The notes below the pieces were generated by a model. The model did no database searches. It worked only from the letters and a program-made list of their open reading frames with translations, and was not told where the DNA came from. The translations under genes were made by a program, and so were the position numbers. DNA of 64,000 bases from a virus. Positions 3,387 to 51,161 of the stretch are shown here, piece by piece. The stretch lies in the IMG/VR virus record IMGVR_UViG_3300030329_004481; one strand, 5' to 3'. Each line of letters begins with the position of its first letter. Within the stretch, counting starts at the first letter, position 1.

Positions 3387-4308
3387 CAGCCATAATCTCT
3401 GTTAAACAAGCGGCCATGTTAAGTTCTTGATCTGCAACAAATGCCGCTTTATATTGATAATCTGCAAGTGTAATAATAACTTGAGGAATTGAATTTTCTT
3501 GTACTTTAGTATTTAGCGCTTCATATAACTTTTTAAATATTTTTGTGGAATCATTATCTAAATTTTCAGCGACCCACTTTCTCATATCATTGAACTTTTT
3601 ATCTTTGAGAAGATCCATTAATTCTTCAATAGATTTATCAGAAATATTTGCAAGGATACCCGAATCAATTTCACCAGAAACACTATACCTTTGAAGTTCA
3701 TTCAAACATCTTCTAAAGTCTGGAAAATATTTATTGACTAGTTCAACAAGAACTTGTTGATTATACTTCACTCCTTCTTCTTCAAGAATGGTACATATTC
3801 TTTTGAAGAAAGAAGAAGCGATTGTTGGGGAATCTTTCTTAGCAATTTTATAATCAACAACCGCACATCTAGAATGAATTGGATCAATGATTCTATTTTT
3901 AAAATTACAAGTAAAGATAAAGGAACAATTGGAAGAAAACCTTTCAATAAAACCACGCATAGCAGGTTGTGTGGATGAAGGATTTAAATAATCAGCTTCA
4001 TCTATGATAACAACTTTTCTACCACCTGTCATAGAAACAGATGAACAATATTGATCTAATTTAGATCTCAAAAGATCAATACCAGATTCTTCAGAACCAT
4101 TTATAATGATGTAATCTGAATTAGTTTCTTTACAAAGTGCAACCGCAGATGTAGTCTTACCAATACCTGCTCCACCAGAAAGTAAAAGATTTGGAACATG
4201 ATTTTTGTCTACAAATTCTTGTAGAGAATCTTTAATAGTATTTGGAAGGATACAATCTTGAATTGTTTGTGGTCTATACTTTTCTACCCAAAGGATGTCT
4301 TTATTCAT
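3370..4308 (-). CDS. gp44: clamp loader ATPase subunit gp44
   Basis: LWVEKYRP, Walker A GGAGIGKTT, IIDEAD, SRC motif. Confidence 0.96.
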   Translation of the reverse strand: MNKDILWVEKYRPQTIQDCILPNTIKDSLQEFVDKNHVPNLLLSGGAGIGKTTSAVALCKETNSDYIIINGSEESGIDLLRSKLDQYCSSVSMTGGRKVVIIDEADYLNPSSTQPAMRGFIERFSSNCSFIFTCNFKNRIIDPIHSRCAVVDYKIAKKDSPTIASSFFKRICTILEEEGVKYNQQVLVELVNKYFPDFRRCLNELQRYSVSGEIDSGILANISDKSIEELMDLLKDKKFNDMRKWVAENLDNDSTKIFKKLYEALNTKVQENSIPQVIITLADYQYKAAFVADQELNMAACLTEIMADASFK

Positions 4309-7728: not shown

Positions 7729-10194
7729 TTATGCCGCAATCTTATCAATCATTGAATTGAGAATGACTCGGTTGGAAAGTCTGTTGCCGACCATCTTCTT
7801 GAAGGCGGTCTTGATTTGACCCTTGGTCGCATCTTCAGCAAGTCCGTCTAGGTTAGTATCTTCAAGTCCGCGCATCTTATCAATATTGATAAAATATCTT
7901 TCATCATATCCATGAGTATTTTCAACTCCAACAGAACCTTTCTTAAATGATTCAGAATATTTCTGCCAATCATTATTATCAAAATCCCAGAATCCACGTT
8001 GTTTCCACCATCTGCGAGGTGCCAAGAAAATTCCAAGGACATTTATACCAGTTGATGCTTTGACATATTTCAGAAGATCTTCAGTTTGAGAAGCACCAAG
8101 ATCAAAAGTTTTTCCATTTCTACATTTGATAAATGCTCTATGATTCCCACCATAACTGTATCTTCTTCTGGCCGCAATAGGATGATACCCATTCACAAAA
8201 TAATTTCCATAGTTCTGATTTAATCTTGAGTCTCTATATTGATCACCAGTATCAACCCATTTATCACCAAAATCAATCATTGCGTGTGAAGTTCTTGATT
8301 CACCATCAGTAAGATAAACCGCATTAACAATTTCTGCACCAGTTGATTTTTTAAACTCATAAACAATTGATGGAGTAAGAATAATTGAATCATCAAGTGG
8401 AGTACCACCGAGACCAAAAGAATGTGGACATTTTAATTGTGGACCAAATGCGCCCCATCCATATCTATTTCCAATTGAATTTCCAAGTCCAAGAAAATAT
8501 TTTGCACCTTTCTGAAATTCTCTTTTATTCATTCTACTTGAAAGAATATTTAAGAGATGAAAATCACCAGGAAAAATATCACCCTTCTTTGGATTTGTAA
8601 TTCTTTCTTTAATATATTTTTCAGAATTATAATCTTCTCTATAATTGATGTTTGTATGTTGTCTGTTTCGTCGACCATAAGCATCTGAAAACATATAAAC
8701 CTCAAATGAGATTTGAACTTTTTCACAAAATGCAGCAAGAACTAAACATTGTTCTACAGTTTCAGAAATACAATTAGACATTGATCCAGACCAATCAATG
8801 AAAAGTAAAAGTCCATGATTTTTACCATCTGGAAGAACAGTCATTTTTTTGAAAATATCTTCACTATAGCGATACTTGAAAAGATTTCCAGAATCAATGA
8901 TTCCAGTTTTTGCTGTCATTGCACGGGCATGTTGTCCTGCCGCTTTCTTCATTTCAAATTCTTTAGCAAGATAGTTAATGACTTTAGAATGCTTAGTTCT
9001 AAAATTCTTCCATAGATCATTCAACAAATTAGATGCTTCACCAGAAGCACCCCAGCCATCTGTATCTTTTCCATTATATATACCATGATCTGTTGAAGTC
9101 TGTTCTTCAATATGTGTAATCATTTCTTTATAATCAACAATATATTGATTAAGATTAAAATCAGGTTCATTCAAATAAAGATAGTCAGGAGAATTTGCAG
9201 ACTCCGCAAGTAAATCACCTTGATTACTTTCCCATTCTTGATCAGTATATGAAAAAGGTTCAACTTTACTTGCATCAGTTATACCACGATCAGGTGTACC
9301 AAATCCGCCTTTAGGTCCAGTTTGAATTTGTTCAGAATCTTTACCTTCATTTTTTTCTTCGTCAGATTCATCTTGAATATTATTTGATGAAGAATTATTT
9401 TCAGATGATTCACCATCATTTTTTTGACCAGGCCCATCTTGTGTTTGATCTGATTCATTTTCTTCTTCACCTTCACATGAAGGATTGTTACTATCAGAAG
9501 ACTCACCATCGTCATCTGAATTCATTTCCATTGAATCATCATTACCTTCTAATCTTTCAGAAGGATCATTACTTTCATCACCATATTGATTATTAAATGA
9601 ATCTTCAAAATCTTCATGTTGATCAGTGTCAGATTCGTGATCTTTTGAATAGTTCCAAAGTTTTTCAACAACATCAAGAACCTCAGCAAATGTTTCAGTT
9701 CTTTCAACCATCTCAACATATTCACGTTCTTCGTCAGAAAATTCAATGTCAAGGGCAGTTCCACATTTTGTATAAAGATTGATTCTGTCAATCAATTTCA
9801 ATTCATTTAGATCCATTCCTCTGACACCAAAAAAATCTTCTTTGAGAAGTTTGTCATAACCCTCAACCATTTGCTTACCCGCACCAGGAAACTTTCTCTT
9901 GATCTTCTTTTCAATTCTGGCGTCCTCAACTACATTAACAAATGATTTGTAACCTGGACCCCTATCAGAAGGAGTCTGGTGCCAACCATCTTCAGGTGTA
10001 TATCTGGCGTGTCCAACTTCATGAGAACACATCAGGTCATATACAGGACCATTCATCCATTTATATACAGGGAGTAGGAGTTTGCGGTTCTTGAGATCAA
10101 ACATGGCTGTGTCATATTTACCATGTTGAACATCAAGATTTTCTTCCGCCATGAGTTTGGCGACTAGGGATTTGGTTTCTCTCAAATCAGACAT
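7729..10194 (-). CDS. metallopeptidase-like/VWA protein (CobT-like partner of the MoxR ATPase)
   Basis: HEVGH, NVVEDARIE, acidic linker, MIDAS DWSGSM, LTDGE; start placed at MSDLRE after GAGG. Confidence 0.8.
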   Translation of the reverse strand: MSDLRETKSLVAKLMAEENLDVQHGKYDTAMFDLKNRKLLLPVYKWMNGPVYDLMCSHEVGHARYTPEDGWHQTPSDRGPGYKSFVNVVEDARIEKKIKRKFPGAGKQMVEGYDKLLKEDFFGVRGMDLNELKLIDRINLYTKCGTALDIEFSDEEREYVEMVERTETFAEVLDVVEKLWNYSKDHESDTDQHEDFEDSFNNQYGDESNDPSERLEGNDDSMEMNSDDDGESSDSNNPSCEGEEENESDQTQDGPGQKNDGESSENNSSSNNIQDESDEEKNEGKDSEQIQTGPKGGFGTPDRGITDASKVEPFSYTDQEWESNQGDLLAESANSPDYLYLNEPDFNLNQYIVDYKEMITHIEEQTSTDHGIYNGKDTDGWGASGEASNLLNDLWKNFRTKHSKVINYLAKEFEMKKAAGQHARAMTAKTGIIDSGNLFKYRYSEDIFKKMTVLPDGKNHGLLLFIDWSGSMSNCISETVEQCLVLAAFCEKVQISFEVYMFSDAYGRRNRQHTNINYREDYNSEKYIKERITNPKKGDIFPGDFHLLNILSSRMNKREFQKGAKYFLGLGNSIGNRYGWGAFGPQLKCPHSFGLGGTPLDDSIILTPSIVYEFKKSTGAEIVNAVYLTDGESRTSHAMIDFGDKWVDTGDQYRDSRLNQNYGNYFVNGYHPIAARRRYSYGGNHRAFIKCRNGKTFDLGASQTEDLLKYVKASTGINVLGIFLAPRRWWKQRGFWDFDNNDWQKYSESFKKGSVGVENTHGYDERYFINIDKMRGLEDTNLDGLAEDATKGQIKTAFKKMVGNRLSNRVILNSMIDKIAA

Positions 10195-10233
10195 AGGAAT
10201 CCTCAATGGGTTTATCAATCATTTTACAGGTAT

Positions 10234-10262
10234 AGTATACCACAGGTGGGGGAAGAAGTCAA
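10234..10262 (-). promoter_or_regulatory. sigma70-type early promoter
   Basis: AAAAAAC-TTGACT, 17 nt, TATACT with TGTGG extension. Confidence 0.8.
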
Positions 10263-10322
10263 GTTTTTTGAAAACCTTAACAATTTCAATACTTTAGTGA
10301 TATCTCTCATTTCCATAACAAC

Positions 10323-10351
10323 AGGATACCATAAATATTTAGAGAAGTCAA
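10323..10351 (-). promoter_or_regulatory. second tandem sigma70-type early promoter
   Basis: AAAAAAC-TTGACT, 17 nt, TATCCT with TGG. Confidence 0.75.
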
Positions 10352-10356
10352 GTTTT

Positions 10357-10475
10357 TTGACCAATTGGCTCCCGGGGAAGGATTCGAACCTTCACGTCCT
10401 CGTCCTGCAACAAAGACAGACCCTAAACAGTGGCCCGTGTCTACCAGTTTCACCACCCGAGAGTCAATTGGTCAA
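10357..10475. repeat. 11-bp perfect inverted repeat bracketing the tRNA (TTGACCAATTG / CAATTGGTCAA)
   Basis: 10357-10367 is the reverse complement of 10465-10475. Confidence 0.85.
10366..10462 (-). tRNA. atypical 97-nt type II tRNA: anticodon GTT (Asn) on a tRNA-Leu-like body, encoded CCA
   Basis: hand-folded: acceptor TCTCGGG/CCCGGGA, G73, CCA; D arm GTG-AAACTGGTAGA-CAC; anticodon arm GGCCA-CTGTTTA-GGGTC; 8-bp variable stem GTCTTTGT/ACGAGGAC; T arm GAAGG-TTCGAAT-CCTTC. Confidence 0.85.
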
Positions 10476-10513: not shown

Positions 10514-10645
10514 CTACTTCAACCAAGTTTCTTCTTCCAGATGTTTAGACTCATGTTCTTTTAATTCTTCAACATCTGTAAAAATTTCATCACATTCAAA
10601 ACAACTATTAAAACCATGCTTTTCATAGAAGTCTTGTTGCGTCAT
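10514..10645 (-). CDS. 43-aa C2H2 zinc-finger microprotein (MTQQDFYEKHGFNSCFECDEIFTDVEELKEHESKHLEEETWLK); not in the ORF track
   Basis: exact C-x2-C-x3-F-x5-L-x2-H-x3-H; ATGA overlap with the upstream aaRS-like stop. Confidence 0.75.
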   Translation of the reverse strand: MTQQDFYEKHGFNSCFECDEIFTDVEELKEHESKHLEEETWLK

Positions 10646-11517
10646 ATTAGATTTGCTTTCTTCATTCCATCGATCATTCTTGTAACACCAATTCCGCCAC
10701 CAAACCTTGGTACAAAATCATGTTCCAAAAATTCATCTAATTCTTTTAATACTCTTTCTTCACCAAATAATTCATAAAGTAAATTTGCATAACCGCCGTC
10801 AGATATTGTATGAAATTGTTCTCTCATCATATCCACATCATCAGCTCTTTCTGCAGAACCAATTGTTTCTTGCCCACCAATAATTACATCACATTTTAAT
10901 GCGGCCATTCCACCAGTAGATAAAGGTGTAGGGTCTTTTTTCATATTCCAGAATGGTGAGGTTGTGTAAGGGAAGTGTGTGAGGAAAAATACGTCTCCGT
11001 ATTCATTATACATATCTGACTCATGTTTAGCGGTAAGTAAGTTGTCAGATGCTGTATACTTACCGCACATCGATAAATAATTACCACCAGGGAAGTGGTC
11101 CGTATATGGTGCCCTTCCATGATCGCACTTAAATCCTAAATGAACGAGTAACTCATCTTCCATCTTAATTAAATCATCAAATGTACCAGGCATTTCAAAT
11201 TCAAACATTGGAAATATAATTTCATGCCTACCAGGTATTGGATTTGGTTCTTGTCTATAACTAGTACTTACACAAAAACAACCAGGAATTTCTGGTCTTG
11301 TAAGCAATTCATATTCTAGCCACATCTGGCCAGTTTGAGGTAGTGGCCAAATTTCACCATTGTATTCGTATGTCGCAACTGTAGTTGGATCTTCACAAGC
11401 GGCAAGAATAGATAATCTATTTTGTGTGTGAACTTCTACAAAGTTTTTAGAAAGAAAAAATTCTCTGAGGCGGGATGTAACAGTAGTGAAATCGTTTGGA
11501 TCAATCAATGATGTCAT
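10642..11517 (-). CDS. class IIb aaRS-like catalytic core (AsnRS/AspRS paralog or archaeal-type asparagine synthetase) lacking the N-terminal anticodon-binding domain
   Basis: motif 1 LREFFLSKNFVEV, LPQTGQMWLE, motif 2 SYRQE..RH..FPMFEFE, ETIGSAER, motif 3 GGGIGVTR; only 291 aa. Confidence 0.85.
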   Translation of the reverse strand: MTSLIDPNDFTTVTSRLREFFLSKNFVEVHTQNRLSILAACEDPTTVATYEYNGEIWPLPQTGQMWLEYELLTRPEIPGCFCVSTSYRQEPNPIPGRHEIIFPMFEFEMPGTFDDLIKMEDELLVHLGFKCDHGRAPYTDHFPGGNYLSMCGKYTASDNLLTAKHESDMYNEYGDVFFLTHFPYTTSPFWNMKKDPTPLSTGGMAALKCDVIIGGQETIGSAERADDVDMMREQFHTISDGGYANLLYELFGEERVLKELDEFLEHDFVPRFGGGIGVTRMIDGMKKANLI

Positions 11518-11555: not shown

Positions 11556-12212
11556 TCAATTCTCTGGATCATAAGATTTGCCTACATCTTTTCCAAATTC
11601 TGTAAAATAACTTAAATCAGTTTCTTTTGCTATTCTATTCTCAACTGAATATACTGTTTGATCTATTAAATAACCTGGATTCTTTTTAAGTCTATTAAAA
11701 GTAAATGCAACATCACTCCAAACAATTCTATTATTTGGATAACAGAAAAAATTACCATCATCCATTTTAAAAAAATGTCCACATTTATGTTCAGGGTCTT
11801 CAGAAAAATTAACATCTAAATTGCCCGCTTTGTTTTCAAAACCCCAATCTAGAGTGAACATATATTCACCCCAATGTTTTTTTCCACTATGGTCTACTAG
11901 TTCTGCTCTCTTTCTCGCAAGTCTTTCTCTCACATTAACATCAATGTATGGTGAAAAACAATCCCAATAATGATGCATATCTAGATCATAAACTGGTGCA
12001 TCTTTTTTCCAACAAAAAGCAGTTATAGGTCTTCTAGTCCAATTAACTCCATTTTCTAATAAACATTCAAATAGTGGAACTCTATGTTCAATACTTGCTA
12101 CTGAATGAATATCAACTACTGAATACTGTCCTTGTCCTTTACTATGATCATACAAATATTCATCCCTTATAAAACAATTTATACAAGGAATATTATGATT
12201 TAAGTATGACAC
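11556..12212 (-). CDS. conserved hypothetical protein of marine T4-like phages
   Basis: CFIRDEYLYD, YWDCFS, YMFTLDW, EHKCGH, YPNNR; GTG start overlapping the upstream TAG. Confidence 0.7.
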   Translation of the reverse strand: MSYLNHNIPCINCFIRDEYLYDHSKGQGQYSVVDIHSVASIEHRVPLFECLLENGVNWTRRPITAFCWKKDAPVYDLDMHHYWDCFSPYIDVNVRERLARKRAELVDHSGKKHWGEYMFTLDWGFENKAGNLDVNFSEDPEHKCGHFFKMDDGNFFCYPNNRIVWSDVAFTFNRLKKNPGYLIDQTVYSVENRIAKETDLSYFTEFGKDVGKSYDPEN

Positions 12213-12448
12213 TAAACTGAAGCATGTGCAATAGGTGACAAAGATGTTTCCCAACCGCCAATAACAATTGCTCCTGTATCTGGATGAGTTAATACTTTAT
12301 ATTCACCATCAACGTCCCATGTATCATCAACTAAGTTTGGTTTATCCACAAAGAGTGTAATAGTACCATCTTTATCTTGGGCATACCATTTCCACTTATC
12401 ATCAACCATAAATTCAAACCTAATACGTTTCTTCTCTGTATTCTCCAT
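12212..12448 (-). CDS. hypothetical protein
   Basis: ORF coupled to neighbours; WYAQDKDG motif. Confidence 0.6.
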   Translation of the reverse strand: MENTEKKRIRFEFMVDDKWKWYAQDKDGTITLFVDKPNLVDDTWDVDGEYKVLTHPDTGAIVIGGWETSLSPIAHASV

Positions 12449-46172: not shown

Positions 46173-46874
46173 TTGATGACAACTGAGATTGATGAAAACA
46201 AGATAAACATTGATTATTCTTTGTTTTCTTGGGATGATTATGAAGAATTTATGACGCAAGTACAATATGTTCTTATGAATCCATTTTGGTGTGTTTCAAA
46301 TCAACATATTAATATGATGTGTGAGATAATTGATCATGACAATGATAAACTTTTAGAACATTCTCTAAAATCATTTGATGAAAAATATACCCAAATTCAA
46401 CAAATACATTTGCACAACTTCTATTTGCAACAAGTTGATACATTTTTTAATATATTTTTACTTTACAATAATCACAATTTTAATTATCAAAATAATATAA
46501 AAGAATTAACAAAAAAATATGGAAGGTATGATGATCAAATAGAAAAATATGTTATTGTGACAAATGTAGAAGAATATGAACTATTTATTAAAGAAAAACA
46601 AAAATTAGACAGTACTCTTGCGTTAACTGAATATGATAAAATAAATCCTAATTTATACCTACAAGAAATAAATTTAATTTTATTTAAAACTGAACGAACA
46701 AAATACAACAGTTATTTATCAATAATTGATGAAAATGCGGACAACGCTCCGCCAAAATATAAACGCAAACCACTATTAATGTACAAACTTATTTCAGATA
46801 TCTTTGATATCAAAAAAATTCAAAATTTAAAAATAAATTATGAACTAATCAATAAGCATTTTACAAATTACTAA
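46173..46874 (+). CDS. hypothetical protein (paralog of 47536..48177)
   Basis: AAGGA RBS; shares IxYSxFxW, YxKIxP and DIFD...NLKIN. Confidence 0.7.
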   Translation: MMTTEIDENKINIDYSLFSWDDYEEFMTQVQYVLMNPFWCVSNQHINMMCEIIDHDNDKLLEHSLKSFDEKYTQIQQIHLHNFYLQQVDTFFNIFLLYNNHNFNYQNNIKELTKKYGRYDDQIEKYVIVTNVEEYELFIKEKQKLDSTLALTEYDKINPNLYLQEINLILFKTERTKYNSYLSIIDENADNAPPKYKRKPLLMYKLISDIFDIKKIQNLKINYELINKHFTNY

Positions 46875-47542
46875 TGGAACTATTAATTACTGGTGATAAA
46901 GGTTTTATAGGATCAAATCTTGTAAACTATTTAAAAGATTATCATATCTATGGTATAGATTATCCCAATAACATTATGACTTGTGTTTTACCACCTGTTG
47001 ATTGTGTAATACATTTGGCGGCTTCAACAGGTGTAAGAGGATCACATAAACATCCAAAATCATATTTTGATAATAATGTAAAAGCAACAAAAAGAATATT
47101 TGATCATTATAAAGATACAAAAATTTTATTCGCATCAACATCATCTGTAAAACAATTACAAAGTCCATATTCAATGTCAAAATATGCTTGTGAACTTATG
47201 GCTCCTGATAATGTTGTGATCATGAGATTTTTTACTGTATGGGGAGAACAAAATTATAGGAGTGATATGTTATATGGTATGGCTATGAATGATAAATTAA
47301 AATATGTAACAGATCATAAAAGAGATTTTACTCACATCTATGATGTTTGTAGAGCAATTAAAATTCTGATTGAAAAGGGAGTTGGTGGAGAAACTTATGA
47401 AATAGGACATGGAACACCAATTACTAATTCTGCATTTTTAAAAAAGATAGGGTACAATAAATCGTTGAAAATAAAAGAAGTAGAAGGTGAATCTGATATT
47501 ACTTGTGCAGATCCAACCAAAATAAAAGAATTGGGATGGTAA
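46874..47542 (+). CDS. NAD-dependent epimerase/dehydratase
   Basis: ITGDKGFIGS, HLAA, YSMSK, RFFTVWG, RDFTH. Confidence 0.9.
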   Translation: MELLITGDKGFIGSNLVNYLKDYHIYGIDYPNNIMTCVLPPVDCVIHLAASTGVRGSHKHPKSYFDNNVKATKRIFDHYKDTKILFASTSSVKQLQSPYSMSKYACELMAPDNVVIMRFFTVWGEQNYRSDMLYGMAMNDKLKYVTDHKRDFTHIYDVCRAIKILIEKGVGGETYEIGHGTPITNSAFLKKIGYNKSLKIKEVEGESDITCADPTKIKELGW

Positions 47543-48177
47543 AAAAAGTTAAGATAAATTATAGTTATTTTGAATGGTCTTATTTTTCTGATATTTTAAA
47601 AATAATATCTAGAATATGTTTATATCCTGCTGAATTGACCGGGCCAAGGATAGGAAATAAAATGATGTCATTTTTTGATGAAAATACTCTTAAATTTTCA
47701 AAGGATAGAAAATTTCAAATATATTTAAATATTACAAAAAATATAAACACATTATATAAAATATTCAAAGAATATGAATTGCATTACAATATCTACAAAA
47801 ATGAAAAAAAGAATATAACAAATGATCAAAACTTATTACTTGAAAATAATAAAATTATTAAAAAAATTGATAAATTAAATAAAAAAGTGCACACATTATC
47901 ATACAATAAAATTGATCCAAAATATTTTATATTTACTTTTTATTATATGCATAAAGCTTTTGGAAAATATATGGTTGGTTCTAAAGGTTTTAATAATAGT
48001 GAGAATGGAAATGAACTACAAGATATATCAAATATAAAAATGATAATGAAAGAACCTTTTTTTACTGTACATATATTTGATGTTTTATATGATATTTTTG
48101 ATATGGACGAACTAGACAATTTAAAAATAAATGAAAAAATTATAAATGAGATGTATTCAGAGTTAATAAATGATTGA
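47536..48177 (+). CDS. hypothetical protein (paralog of 46173..46874)
   Basis: shared motifs as above; start placed at MVKKV. Confidence 0.65.
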   Translation: MVKKVKINYSYFEWSYFSDILKIISRICLYPAELTGPRIGNKMMSFFDENTLKFSKDRKFQIYLNITKNINTLYKIFKEYELHYNIYKNEKKNITNDQNLLLENNKIIKKIDKLNKKVHTLSYNKIDPKYFIFTFYYMHKAFGKYMVGSKGFNNSENGNELQDISNIKMIMKEPFFTVHIFDVLYDIFDMDELDNLKINEKIINEMYSELIND

Positions 48178-48784
48178 TATTATAATAATATTTTTATGGT
48201 GGCACATCATAGCAACATTTGGATTATCAATAGGATATCATCGATATTTTTCTCACCAAACATTTAAAGTATCGTATACTTGGGAAATAATATTTTTAAT
48301 ATGTGGTTATATGTGTGGAGCAAGATCACCAATTACTTGGGCAGCAGTTCATAGATTACATCATGAATATTCAGATACTAAAAAAGATCCACATTCACCA
48401 AAATTTATAGGATTAAAATCTTTATTTTCATTGTGGACTATTGATTACATTCCAAAAAAATATTTCAAAGGATTATTAACTCCCCATTTAAGATTTGCTC
48501 ACAAATATGGAAAATATATATGGTTAGGAATAGGTTTGATACTATTGATAATTAATTTCAATTTCTTTGTAATTTTTTGGTTGTCACCATTTTTAATTAG
48601 TTATATTGGATTTGGAATATTAAATTATTTTGGTCACAATCCAACTCCAACTAATAGATTGTGGATTAATTTATTTGCTCCAAGTGAAGGTTGGCATGAA
48701 GAACATCACAATCATCCATCAAAATATAAAATGAACAAATATGATATCGCTGGATTCATTATTACAAAAATCAAAAGCAGTTAG
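48170..48784 (+). CDS. membrane fatty acid desaturase (delta-9-like)
   Basis: His boxes HRYFSH, HRLHH, HEEHH; DPHSP; TM helices. Confidence 0.9.
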   Translation: MIDIIIIFLWWHIIATFGLSIGYHRYFSHQTFKVSYTWEIIFLICGYMCGARSPITWAAVHRLHHEYSDTKKDPHSPKFIGLKSLFSLWTIDYIPKKYFKGLLTPHLRFAHKYGKYIWLGIGLILLIINFNFFVIFWLSPFLISYIGFGILNYFGHNPTPTNRLWINLFAPSEGWHEEHHNHPSKYKMNKYDIAGFIITKIKSS

Positions 48785-49532
48785 AACATTTCCATTATTT
48801 CCCTTACCGGAAATAGAATTAGATTTAACAGAAGTAAAACATTATAATTGGAATAGTACAAATATAAAAGAATGGTTAAGTCCAGTTATAGATTTGTCAG
48901 GGTTTGAATATGTTTATCCAATAAATGGTATTACAGAGGGATTAAATTATTGGATGTGGCAAGAAGATAGAATATGGATGCATAGTGGAGATTATCAATG
49001 GATAACACCTTCTGTACCACATCAAAATATGGGTATAACATATTTGACAACACCATCATCTATAGATGGAAACTTTAAAGAAGTACCTAATGTATATAAT
49101 TATGTTCTTGATATAGCATATGTAGGATCAACTAAAATTGAAAAAATTAATATACATAACAATGTACAAAAAATATTTTTCTCATTGTCAAAATGTTTCG
49201 GTTTGCGTAACATAAGAACAGGGTGGTATTTTAGTAAAACTCCTGATAAAAAATTAGAACTACTAATAGGATCTGCAAAATATTATAATTATTATGCACA
49301 AGCAGTAGCAGAACATTTTATCAATAAATATGATATAGATATTGTATATAAAACTCTTCGACCTATACAAGAAGAAGTATGTGAACAATTTAACTTAATA
49401 CCTTCTGATGTTGTATGGTTAGCAACAACCAATGATCCAAAATTTGAAAAATTTAAAAGAGGAAACATTTGCCGTGTCAGCATTGCGGAAGAAATATCAA
49501 CTGCCTACCATAGCAGAATTACCACAAATTAA
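48741..49532 (+). CDS. PLP-dependent fold-type I enzyme (aminotransferase-like)
   Basis: GITEG, LDIAY, FSLSKCFGL...RTGW. Confidence 0.75.
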   Translation: MISLDSLLQKSKAVRTFPLFPLPEIELDLTEVKHYNWNSTNIKEWLSPVIDLSGFEYVYPINGITEGLNYWMWQEDRIWMHSGDYQWITPSVPHQNMGITYLTTPSSIDGNFKEVPNVYNYVLDIAYVGSTKIEKINIHNNVQKIFFSLSKCFGLRNIRTGWYFSKTPDKKLELLIGSAKYYNYYAQAVAEHFINKYDIDIVYKTLRPIQEEVCEQFNLIPSDVVWLATTNDPKFEKFKRGNICRVSIAEEISTAYHSRITTN

Positions 49533-50121
49533 AATAAATTTATCAAAATTAAAAACAGAATATCTAAAATTTTGCTCAAAATTTATAGATGTGGAAACTG
49601 CAAATCCTCATTTATGTATGAATCATAAAAAACTTGTAAGTGAAGTTTATGATAATTTTGAACAAATAAATCTTACAGAATTAAATGGCGAGCCCATGCC
49701 ATATACTGATAATATAAAAGAAAGAATAAAACGTAGAGAAGAAACATTATACAATAAAAAGACACAAGATTATATTGGTAGTTATTTTGAAAATATAGTA
49801 GAACAATTTATATCTCCTGCTATGAGGATAAGAATTACAAAACTTGCTCCTAAAAAAGAAATAACATGGCACACAGACTATGACCCAACATATGCTACAA
49901 GAATTATTATACCAATATATTCCAATAAAAAAGTTAAAAATTTATTTAAAGTCAGAAAAAATGTTGAAGAATATTTTTTAGAAGAAGGTAAAGCATATTT
50001 TATAAATGGGGGATTTGCTCATTCAGTTAAAAATGATAGTGAAAATTCAAGAATTGCATTAATGTTTAGTTTAGATGGACAAGATGATTTGGAAATTGTG
50101 CCCAATAGAATTACATATTGA
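49432..50121 (+). CDS. 2OG-Fe(II) oxygenase (Asp/Asn beta-hydroxylase-like)
   Basis: WHTD, RIIIP, HSVKN...RIAL. Confidence 0.8.
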   Translation: MIQNLKNLKEETFAVSALRKKYQLPTIAELPQIKINLSKLKTEYLKFCSKFIDVETANPHLCMNHKKLVSEVYDNFEQINLTELNGEPMPYTDNIKERIKRREETLYNKKTQDYIGSYFENIVEQFISPAMRIRITKLAPKKEITWHTDYDPTYATRIIIPIYSNKKVKNLFKVRKNVEEYFLEEGKAYFINGGFAHSVKNDSENSRIALMFSLDGQDDLEIVPNRITY

Positions 50122-50542
50122 AGAAATAAAAAAATTATTTAACAAAACAAAAGGACATAAACATCAAGACAATTATATTAAATGGCCTTTATTTGAATAC
50201 ACAAAATTTGCAAGAATGGGGTGGGACAAACATCTTATATATTATTCTGCTGGTATTGAAAGACCTGAATACAATGGATCAATTAGAATAATGAGTAGAC
50301 ATACTAGAGACAGATCATATAATTTTGGAACATATAATGATGATTTAAAAAGAGGTTTGGAAACTTTAGAACAAAGTACATACTATGCAAAAAAATTAGG
50401 ATATAAAAATATATGGGTTAGTAGAGAAGAAAGTCCAAAACTTTTAGAATATTTTTCCAAACATTCACAATATGATTGGAAATTAAATTATGAAAAATTA
50501 CATTATGGTGGTAAACAATATATTTTAAGAATCAATGACTAG
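50075..50542 (+). CDS. hypothetical protein, possibly GNAT-like
   Basis: RIMSR...YAKKLGYKNIWVSRE. Confidence 0.5.
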   Translation: MDKMIWKLCPIELHIEEIKKLFNKTKGHKHQDNYIKWPLFEYTKFARMGWDKHLIYYSAGIERPEYNGSIRIMSRHTRDRSYNFGTYNDDLKRGLETLEQSTYYAKKLGYKNIWVSREESPKLLEYFSKHSQYDWKLNYEKLHYGGKQYILRIND

Positions 50543-51161
50543 TATAGTTTTTCCTCCTGGTAAATTTTTTTGTTACTTGAGACAACCAAAAAGTGCAAGT
50601 CTAAGTATGACAAAATGGATTATAGATTTTGCAAAACAAAATAAAAAACCATACTTAACTAGTTTGCCTTATCAACAAAAAAATTTTAATGTTGATTATG
50701 AAAAAAATACAATAATCACCCACCACATGACCGCACAAAGATTAAAAAATACTATTCCTCAATGGTGGAATGATATGGAAAAAATGGTAACAGTTAGAAA
50801 TCCATGGAATATTTTAGCAAGTAAATTCTATCATATGAAAAAATTGGGTGTTAATCAAGTTGCAACAAATACCTTTAAAGAATTTTGTTATGAATTAAAA
50901 AATTTAAGGGGAACTTTAAATCCAGGAGAGAACTACTATAAAATTGATGGTGATATGATCGCAGATCATATTATTCCTGTAGAAAATTTACAAGAATATT
51001 TAAATGAAATTTTTAAAGATTTTATTGTTCCAAAAGTTCAACACACAAATATAGGAACAGTAACACAAGAAAAATATAAAAACCTTTATACTGATGAAAT
51101 AAACAATATGATAGAAATTGATTTCAAATATGAAATAAAATTATTTGATTATAAATTTTGA
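50535..51161 (+). CDS. sulfotransferase family protein
   Basis: PKSASLS 5'-PSB-like, HMTA, VRNPW...S. Confidence 0.75.
   Translation: MTSIVFPPGKFFCYLRQPKSASLSMTKWIIDFAKQNKKPYLTSLPYQQKNFNVDYEKNTIITHHMTAQRLKNTIPQWWNDMEKMVTVRNPWNILASKFYHMKKLGVNQVATNTFKEFCYELKNLRGTLNPGENYYKIDGDMIADHIIPVENLQEYLNEIFKDFIVPKVQHTNIGTVTQEKYKNLYTDEINNMIEIDFKYEIKLFDYKF

Follow-up and report, generated by a model that had tools for sequence, protein, structure and literature searches.

A class II-bodied tRNA-Asn(GUU) tied to an asparaginyl-tRNA synthetase-like enzyme in marine phages, a candidate captive carrier tRNA

In decoding transfer RNAs (tRNAs), U33 and a purine at position 37 are near-universal, the latter carrying N6-threonylcarbamoyladenosine (t6A37) on decoders of ANN codons. 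Long-armed (class II) bodies combined with an anticodon for an amino acid other than leucine or serine are known from the nev-tRNAs of nematodes. Allo-tRNAs, whose acceptor and T stems are of the 8/4 or 9/3 type, carry serine or alanine identity (Mukai et al., 2017; PMC5389517). The identity set of asparaginyl-tRNA synthetase (AsnRS) and of the aspartyl-tRNA synthetase that is non-discriminating (ND-AspRS) consists of the anticodon and G73 (PMC9976931), and the bacterial amidotransferase GatCAB recognizes the first pair U1-A72 (PMC2811023, PMC9976931). Antideterminants have also been described, namely G73 against leucyl-tRNA synthetase (LeuRS) and, in tRNA-Leu of Escherichia coli, C2-G71 against seryl-tRNA synthetase (SerRS) (PMC9976931). 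Here we analyzed a 64,000-nt stretch of viral DNA (IMG/VR record IMGVR_UViG_3300030329_004481, referred to at its full length as the window), which encodes a tRNA with an asparagine anticodon on a leucine-type body. A previous interpretation of this DNA made from its letters alone (the sequence-only reading) had pointed out the tRNA; the decisive context that it did not include is a gene for an AsnRS-like catalytic core, here called X, located immediately upstream on the same strand. On the basis of sequence and gene context, we tentatively propose that the tRNA is a captive asparagine carrier of X rather than a routine decoder.

ARAGORN detected a single tRNA in the window, Asn(GTT), 97 nt long including the encoded CCA (10366-10462), and thereby agreed with the sequence-only reading on its position; the strand, which needed stating, is the minus strand. 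Reading of the reverse complement showed an acceptor stem UCUCGGG/CCCGGGA with U1-A72 and a U3.G70 pair, U8 and G9, a D stem of 3 bp with the D loop AAACUGGUAGA, and an anticodon stem GGCCA/GGGUC in which an A31.G39 mismatch closes the loop. The anticodon GUU (10426-10428, minus strand) lies in the loop CUGUUUA, in which U33 is kept and position 37 is U. The variable region (10394-10418, minus strand) comprises 25 nt, with a stem of 8-9 bp and a 6-nt loop, and the T arm GAAGG-UUCGAAU-CCUUC is followed by G73 and CCA, giving an architecture with a 7-bp acceptor and a 5-bp T stem. The Leu-type D loop, the long variable arm (for which an 8-bp stem had been given), the GUU anticodon, the discriminator G, U1-A72, U3.G70, A31.G39 and U37, all named in the sequence-only reading, were thus recovered. 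The tRNA scored 33.3 bits against Rfam RF00005 in sensitive mode (gathering score 29), and its membership of this family was further borne out by four covariation-backed helices and by the U8/G18G19/UUCGA elbow. An Rfam scan of the window at default filters gave no tRNA match, which was a filter effect, since relaxed filters recovered the tRNA. Our own covariance model of the phage tRNA family (R1) gave it 83.8 bits.

The tRNA is bracketed by a 20-nt inverted repeat with 90% complementarity (3' arm 10357-10376, paired with the 5' arm 10456-10475), by which the acceptor helix is lengthened by approximately 13 bp into leader and trailer. This repeat may be a putative precursor-processing structure.

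Alignment of 45 distinct homologues (alignment A2), in which the four canonical helices make up 20 pairs, showed 99.9% of the stem cells to be paired, with changes on both sides in 18 of the 20 pairs. Neither shuffling (0 of 500) nor sliding of the register came near the real alignment, and the only unpaired stem cell in the set was the A31.G39 of the window itself. The window tRNA is therefore a real gene under selection. The sequence-only reading had proposed covariation among homologues as a check, with random decay lacking compensatory changes, or assembly errors, as the outcomes that would speak against a functional tRNA; neither was seen. A tRNA identical to that of the window was present in a contig of 244.6 kb (L210), which might itself be the source of the window, and 58 blocks of the assembly collection contained the X protein of the window without a single difference, so that the odd bases are not a one-off assembly error. 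A pseudo-tRNA or an assembly artefact could have drawn on A31.G39 and U37 in the window and on the weak anticodon stems of close relatives; it was refuted by the strong covariation, the identical copy, the 58 exact occurrences of X and the hundreds of loci carrying the module, and we consider its probability negligible.

The variable arm ranged from approximately 5 to 32 nt across the family. The nearest relatives of the window (X 92-97% identical) carried a tRNA of only 79 nt, in which the long arm is missing, the anticodon stem has 3 bp and CTA replaces CCA. In one locus (L003, region 3941-4040), an extra hairpin of approximately 17 nt lies inside the D loop of the tRNA, which ARAGORN misses; a conserved loop of the variable arm, ACUGCAAU, is common to many other members of the family.

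Invariant among the 45 homologues were U1-A72, G73, U8, G18G19, the T loop (UUCGA), G34 and U35. At position 36, 42 homologues had U and 3 had C. CCA was encoded in 43, and C2-G71 was present in 40, the window tRNA included. The conserved U1-A72, G73, G34 and U35 coincide with the published determinants of AsnRS/ND-AspRS and GatCAB. All 45 thus carried the U1-A72 pair expected of a GatCAB substrate; a supernumerary D-loop base (U20a/20b) is an antideterminant for GatCAB, and the Leu-type D loop has no unambiguous numbering from sequence. The tRNA is also predicted to be insulated from the synthetases that serve class II bodies, by G73 from LeuRS and by C2-G71 from SerRS. These antideterminants argue against charging with leucine or serine, C2-G71 being an E. 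coli rule from which the SerRS of the hosts may differ, and they bear on the possibility of a missense tRNA, in which SerRS or LeuRS would charge the class II body and serine or leucine would be inserted at asparagine codons. The long variable arm and G73 do resemble tRNA-Ser. However, besides the two antideterminants (PMC9976931), the D arm is of Leu type and not of Ser type, the long arm has been lost in close relatives while the tRNA gene was kept, and X is left out of account, which makes a missense role extremely improbable.

While the positions that could serve as protein handles were conserved, those specific to decoding drifted. Position 33 was U in 37 homologues, C in 5, A in 2 and G in 1 (U33 lost in 8 of 45), position 37 was U in 33, C in 2, A in 7 and G in 3 (so that 35 of 45 have a pyrimidine there), and variation was also seen at positions 32 and 38. 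With U37 or C37 in 35 homologues, the t6A37 expected on ANN decoders cannot form in these, and the loss of U33 and of purine 37, as read from the loop sequences, argues against routine decoding.

The strongest argument against an anticodon serving codon reading was provided by two near-identical phages (L030 and L031), in which X and its flanks, compared in windows of 50 nt, showed identities of 96% or more and the pocket motifs of the X proteins were identical. The interior of the tRNA had been swapped between them, one being of GUU type and the other of GUC type, with the same acceptor stem and differing D arms. Since GUU- and GUC-type tRNAs stand behind the same X, X does not read the anticodon; one amino acid on both tRNAs would mean unfaithful decoding, which suggests that the anticodon serves to recruit a protein, a reader of the AspRS/AsnRS type, and not to read codons. 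The occurrence of either a GUU- or a GUC-type version of the class II-bodied tRNA behind X was also noted for L038 and L045.

Invariance of G34 and U35 in an otherwise variable loop, together with the non-canonical body, would also be in line with an RNA that, as a decoy or sponge, captures an anticodon nuclease of the host or some other factor binding GUN anticodons, or with a regulatory ligand reporting the charging of tRNA-Asn to X. Such a role would leave the conserved G73, U1-A72 and encoded CCA as well as the obligate linkage to an AsnRS-like enzyme unexplained, and we know of no nuclease target for the hosts of these phages. We regard it as very unlikely.

Gene X (10642-11517, minus strand) encodes a protein of 291 amino acids with a class IIb aminoacyl-tRNA synthetase core (PF00152) as its only Pfam domain; an anticodon-binding domain was absent. 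With the NCBIfam models asnS and aspS, it reached approximately 22-24 bits against cut-offs above 340 (22.2 vs. 342.6 for asnS), and sequence searches of the PDB with X gave only distant AsnRS/AspRS matches. A structural model made with AlphaFold2 (AF2; predicted local distance difference test, pLDDT, 88.7) had its best Foldseek matches in AsnRS (human, Pyrococcus, Thermus, Brugia), followed by AspRS and lysyl-tRNA synthetase (LysRS). The pocket was AsnRS-like at two places in HMMER alignments: QTGQMWLE of X stood opposite QSSQLYLE in AsnRS and QSPQLYKQ in AspRS, and FEFE opposite E-x-E in AsnRS and D-x-E in AspRS. X therefore shows the same replacement as AsnRS for the lysine and aspartate which we take to bind the aspartate side chain in AspRS. 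Among the class II motifs, motif 2 (R-x-E...GRH...F...E-F-E) and motif 3 (GGGIG-x-x-R) were intact and invariant, and the proline of motif 1 was replaced (HTQ).

The arrangement in the window recurred widely. At least 599 IMG/VR contigs carried a relative of X, and among 80 phage loci fetched from these, 72 had the tRNA downstream of X in the same orientation, the gap having a median of 7 nt (typically 4-10 nt). In the protein collection, clustering of the relatives of X at 90% identity gave more than 8000 clusters, nearly all unnamed, and clustering at 50% gave 432 (E < 1e-10). X corresponds to the protein annotated as 'tRNA ligase' in the Prochlorococcus phages P-SSM2, P-SSM5 and P-SSM7 (54-58% identical), and was also found in three huge uncultured phages. 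Directly downstream of X, P-SSM2 and P-SSM7 encode a long-arm tRNA(GUU). The annotated coordinates of the tRNA-Asn of P-SSM2 (NC_006883.2) are stale, falling inside a coding sequence without tRNA sequence; the real tRNA, as located with ARAGORN, lies approximately 2 kb away, right after the 'tRNA ligase' gene. The one mention of X that we found in the literature is a 'tRNA ligase' table entry, as a sporadic 'host-like' gene of two cyanophages (PMC3037559). Our literature searches retrieved no study of the pair of X and tRNA, and nothing on the presence of AsnRS in Prochlorococcus hosts. Contigs from marine RNA libraries contained fragments of X of relatives and the 3' part of the tRNA of one relative; such contigs cannot prove transcription or reveal RNA ends or processing.

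The tight linkage of X and tRNA, the pocket of AsnRS type in an enzyme whose motifs 2 and 3 are intact, and the encoded CCA, canonical elbow and U33 in 82% of the members could alternatively indicate a private (orthogonal) mini-AsnRS/tRNA pair working in translation. X would then charge asparagine by way of the acceptor end, and perhaps of the long arm, and the tRNA would decode AAY codons during infection, with its altered loop and class II body giving resistance to anticodon nucleases or independence from the host AsnRS. Class IIb cores contact G73 and the 1-72 pair, in agreement with such charging, and evasion of nucleases by phage tRNAs whose anticodon loops are mutated has reportedly been described. 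However, position 37 is a pyrimidine in 78% of the members and U33 is lost in 18%, and GUC and GUU tRNAs behind the same X would place one amino acid at both aspartate and asparagine codons. As X has no anticodon reader, the conservation of GUU would be explained by decoding only, and X in cellular genomes travels with pyrimidine genes instead of a tRNA (see below). We consider this explanation, the main rival of a captive carrier, possible but rather doubtful; if true, the pair would be the smallest known asparagine-charging system, and an anticodon-blind one.

In cellular genomes, scanned with one genome per species, X was found at 414 loci, which belong to many Patescibacteria, to Saprospiraceae, Chitinophagales and Aureispira, and to some Proteobacteria. 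In Patescibacteria, X often followed the genes for SerRS and Dus (23 loci). With regard to the possibility that X is the AsnRS missing from Patescibacteria, four X-positive genomes had no asnS above the cut-off and did have gatB, a phyletic comparison without power since, of 151 genomes sampled from this phylum, only 2 contained X. None of the four genomes yielded a class II-bodied tRNA(GUU), the best model matches being tRNA-Leu.

A link to pyrimidine synthesis was apparent from the gene neighborhoods. Fusions of the types PyrD::X and X::PyrF exist, in clusters with PyrE, PyrD or PyrF, and in eight Bacteroidota loci X lies near a gene for a PyrE-PyrF fusion, five of these also having a pyrD match; in one of them (L097), pyrD-X stands beside a divergent PyrE-PyrF gene. 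Loci in which X is fused to dihydroorotate dehydrogenase or orotidine 5'-monophosphate decarboxylase, or lies beside pyrD and a pyrE-pyrF fusion, were L083-L086, L097 and L154. Aspartate transcarbamoylase (ATCase) was absent from all seven X-positive Bacteroidota genomes tested and present in 90 of the 98 genomes from the same order that were X-negative, and CarB was absent from four of the five X-positive genomes tested. The X-positive Bacteroidota genomes retained PyrC-like genes and a full-length AsnRS; the presence of asnB and gatB among X-positive genomes was mixed and thus uninformative. These contexts suggest that X may be a metabolic enzyme feeding the pyrimidine pathway. All invariant motifs are common to the phage and cellular forms of X, so that their chemistry is probably the same.

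The cellular genomes also bear on the possibility that X and the tRNA have independent functions, X being a metabolic enzyme that works without tRNA and consumes or produces asparagine, and the tRNA an extra, odd, host-charged tRNA-Asn kept adjacent for co-expression; the tRNA could, for example, buffer asparagine decoding while X alters the asparagine pool. That cellular X has no private tRNA, that host-facing identity elements are conserved in the phage tRNA and that some phage loci lack the tRNA are all in line with this. It would not account for the gap of 4-10 nt being typical across very diverged phages, for a tRNA cassette that was swapped while its location and acceptor stem always stayed the same, or for loop features that are poor for decoding, and we judge it improbable.

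The reading of the tRNA as a captive carrier is tentatively favored because the conserved parts are those by which proteins would hold it (the acceptor end by X or GatCAB, and the anticodon with G73 by AsnRS or AspRS), while the decoding parts drift. Among the four roles put forward in the sequence-only reading, that of a non-ribosomal aminoacyl carrier fits best, given the unconserved U33 and purine 37 and the GUU/GUC swap. Insertion of serine at asparagine codons is unlikely in view of C2-G71, a decoy does not explain X, and a nuclease-evading tRNA-Asn remains a live rival. In the proposed mechanism, the tRNA would be made on one transcript with X; the finding of no promoter-like site between X and the tRNA in the window fits such co-transcription. 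It would then be loaded with asparagine, either by host enzymes that recognize exactly those elements found conserved or, at its acceptor end, by X itself. Loading by the host would involve AsnRS, or ND-AspRS (reading the anticodon and G73) followed by GatCAB (reading U1-A72). The 3' end of the tRNA, bearing asparagine, would then sit in the AsnRS-like pocket of X. What X might do with the asparagine is suggested only by its cellular relatives in, or fused to members of, the pyrD/pyrE/pyrF set, in genomes that lack ATCase and for the most part carbamoyl-phosphate synthetase. Whereas the reality and selection of the tRNA, its linkage to X, the conservation pattern of its positions and the gene contexts of X were observed, we infer the binding of the tRNA by X, the loader, the amino acid carried and the product.

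A more specific form of the mechanism, which we consider rather unlikely, is that the module gives access to pyrimidine synthesis by a shortcut that depends on a tRNA. The captive, non-decoding tRNA would be loaded with asparagine by ND-AspRS/GatCAB or AsnRS of the host, and X would use this asparagine (or free asparagine) with CO2 and ATP to form carbamoyl-aspartate or dihydroorotate, replacing carbamoyl-phosphate synthetase and ATCase. If true, this would give the phage a pyrimidine supply outside feedback control.

Several observations weigh against a captive carrier. U33 in 37 of the 45 homologues, the canonical elbow of D and T loops and the encoded CCA are all compatible with translation. 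Approximately 8 of the 80 phage loci have no tRNA downstream of X, and the short, 79-nt version in the closest relatives of the window could mean that the RNA is dispensable in some lineages. Cellular X lacks an adjoining class II-bodied tRNA(GUU), except in three contigs from metagenome-assembled genomes that resemble binned phage; X can therefore work without a private tRNA, or uses the housekeeping tRNA-Asn, and the tRNA may not be a substrate of X at all. The AsnRS-like character of the pocket hangs on two diagnostic positions, whose roles are those that they have in AspRS and AsnRS structures. As for the pyrimidine connection, five ATCase-less genomes of the same order had no X match, which weakens a simple rule that X replaces ATCase, and the association of X with the absence of ATCase is phylogenetically non-independent, the genomes being related.

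If the carrier reading is true, a natural tRNA would have been withdrawn from decoding and dedicated to one enzyme across hundreds of ocean phage lineages, and X and its tRNA would be a candidate orthogonal enzyme/tRNA pair. Together with the pyrimidine context, a carrier would hint at an undescribed entry into nucleotide synthesis, used by phages to reprogram abundant marine hosts.

The window itself belongs to a T4-like marine myovirus, as indicated by gp46/gp47-like genes, CobS, peptide deformylase, long same-strand arrays and a GC content of approximately 30%. Between X and the tRNA, and overlapping the stop of X, lies an open reading frame (ORF) of 43 amino acids with a C-x2-C...H-x4-H (C2H2-like) motif (10514-10645, minus strand). 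Gene calling gave this small gene in L205-L210, the closest relatives, and in the L013 group as well; it was absent from most other loci with X and tRNA. Directly past the 3' end of the tRNA there is a promoter-like site (TTGACT, 17 nt, TATCCT, with TG; 10323-10351, minus strand), and a second one follows at 10234-10262 on the minus strand (TTGACT, 17 nt, TATACT, with TG). An exact 18-nt direct repeat, AGAAGTCAAGTTTTTTGA, occurs at 10254-10271 and 10343-10360, each copy overlapping the TTGACT hexamer of a promoter-like site; the tRNA stands just upstream of the two copies, and a gene encoding 829 amino acids follows them. This gene (7729-10218, minus strand) adjoins CobS and matched PHROG 'peptidase' (phrog_459) and a cobalamin-biosynthesis-like family, with no Pfam match. 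On the other side of the module, the gene at 11556-12254 (minus strand) matched PHROG 'ferredoxin' (phrog_3704), likewise with no Pfam match. The sole plus-strand block of the window (46173-51161) holds eight overlapping ORFs of 155-263 amino acids with 25-27% GC and a reversed GC skew.

Compared with described systems, the module is the same as that of P-SSM2, P-SSM5 and P-SSM7, annotated there as 'tRNA-Asn' and 'tRNA ligase', with which the window shares U1-A72, G73 and the loop CUGUUUA; the tRNAs of the Prochlorococcus phages differ in having no encoded CCA and shorter variable arms. Canonical bacterial and phage tRNA-Asn, of class I, has GUU, G73 and U1-A72 in common with the window tRNA, which departs from it by its 25-nt variable arm, Leu-type D arm and U37 instead of A37, and by the unconserved U33 of its family. 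In D arm, D loop and long variable arm, the phage tRNA is like bacterial tRNA-Leu, and the best matches of the R1 model in four bacterial genomes were ordinary tRNA-Leu genes at 60-70 bits; the phage tRNA differs by its Asn anticodon and by G73 (45 of 45) in place of A73. With bacterial tRNA-Ser, it shares the long arm and G73 and is set apart by the C2-G71 antideterminant and the Leu-type D arm. A long variable arm and an unexpected anticodon are also shared with allo-tRNAs and further class II-bodied tRNAs whose anticodons are not those of Leu or Ser (Mukai et al., 2017; PMC5389517), whereas the 7/5 architecture, the Asn identity elements and the tie to an enzyme of its own distinguish the phage tRNA.

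On the side of the enzyme, X resembles the catalytic domain of AsnRS (for example PDB 1X54, 8TC8 and 2XGT) in its class IIb fold, in motifs 2 and 3 and in its AsnRS-type pocket residues. It differs by the missing N-terminal anticodon-binding domain of the oligonucleotide/oligosaccharide-binding (OB) fold, the replaced proline of motif 1 and, for cellular X, the context of pyrimidine genes. The archaeal AsnRS-like asparagine synthetase (AS-AR, PDB 3P8T) and AsnA of E. coli are, like X, stand-alone class II cores of approximately 290 amino acids with an origin in AsnRS/AspRS, but the similarity of X to them is marginal (profile E = 0.054), and those enzymes are tRNA-independent and have no linked tRNA gene. 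With respect to tRNA-dependent asparagine synthesis by the transamidosome of ND-AspRS and GatCAB, the phage tRNA keeps exactly the elements read there, namely the anticodon, G73 and U1-A72. It would differ from the tRNA of that system in being a dedicated, probably non-decoding scaffold that works with a further enzyme, in a module that contains no GatCAB or AspRS gene.

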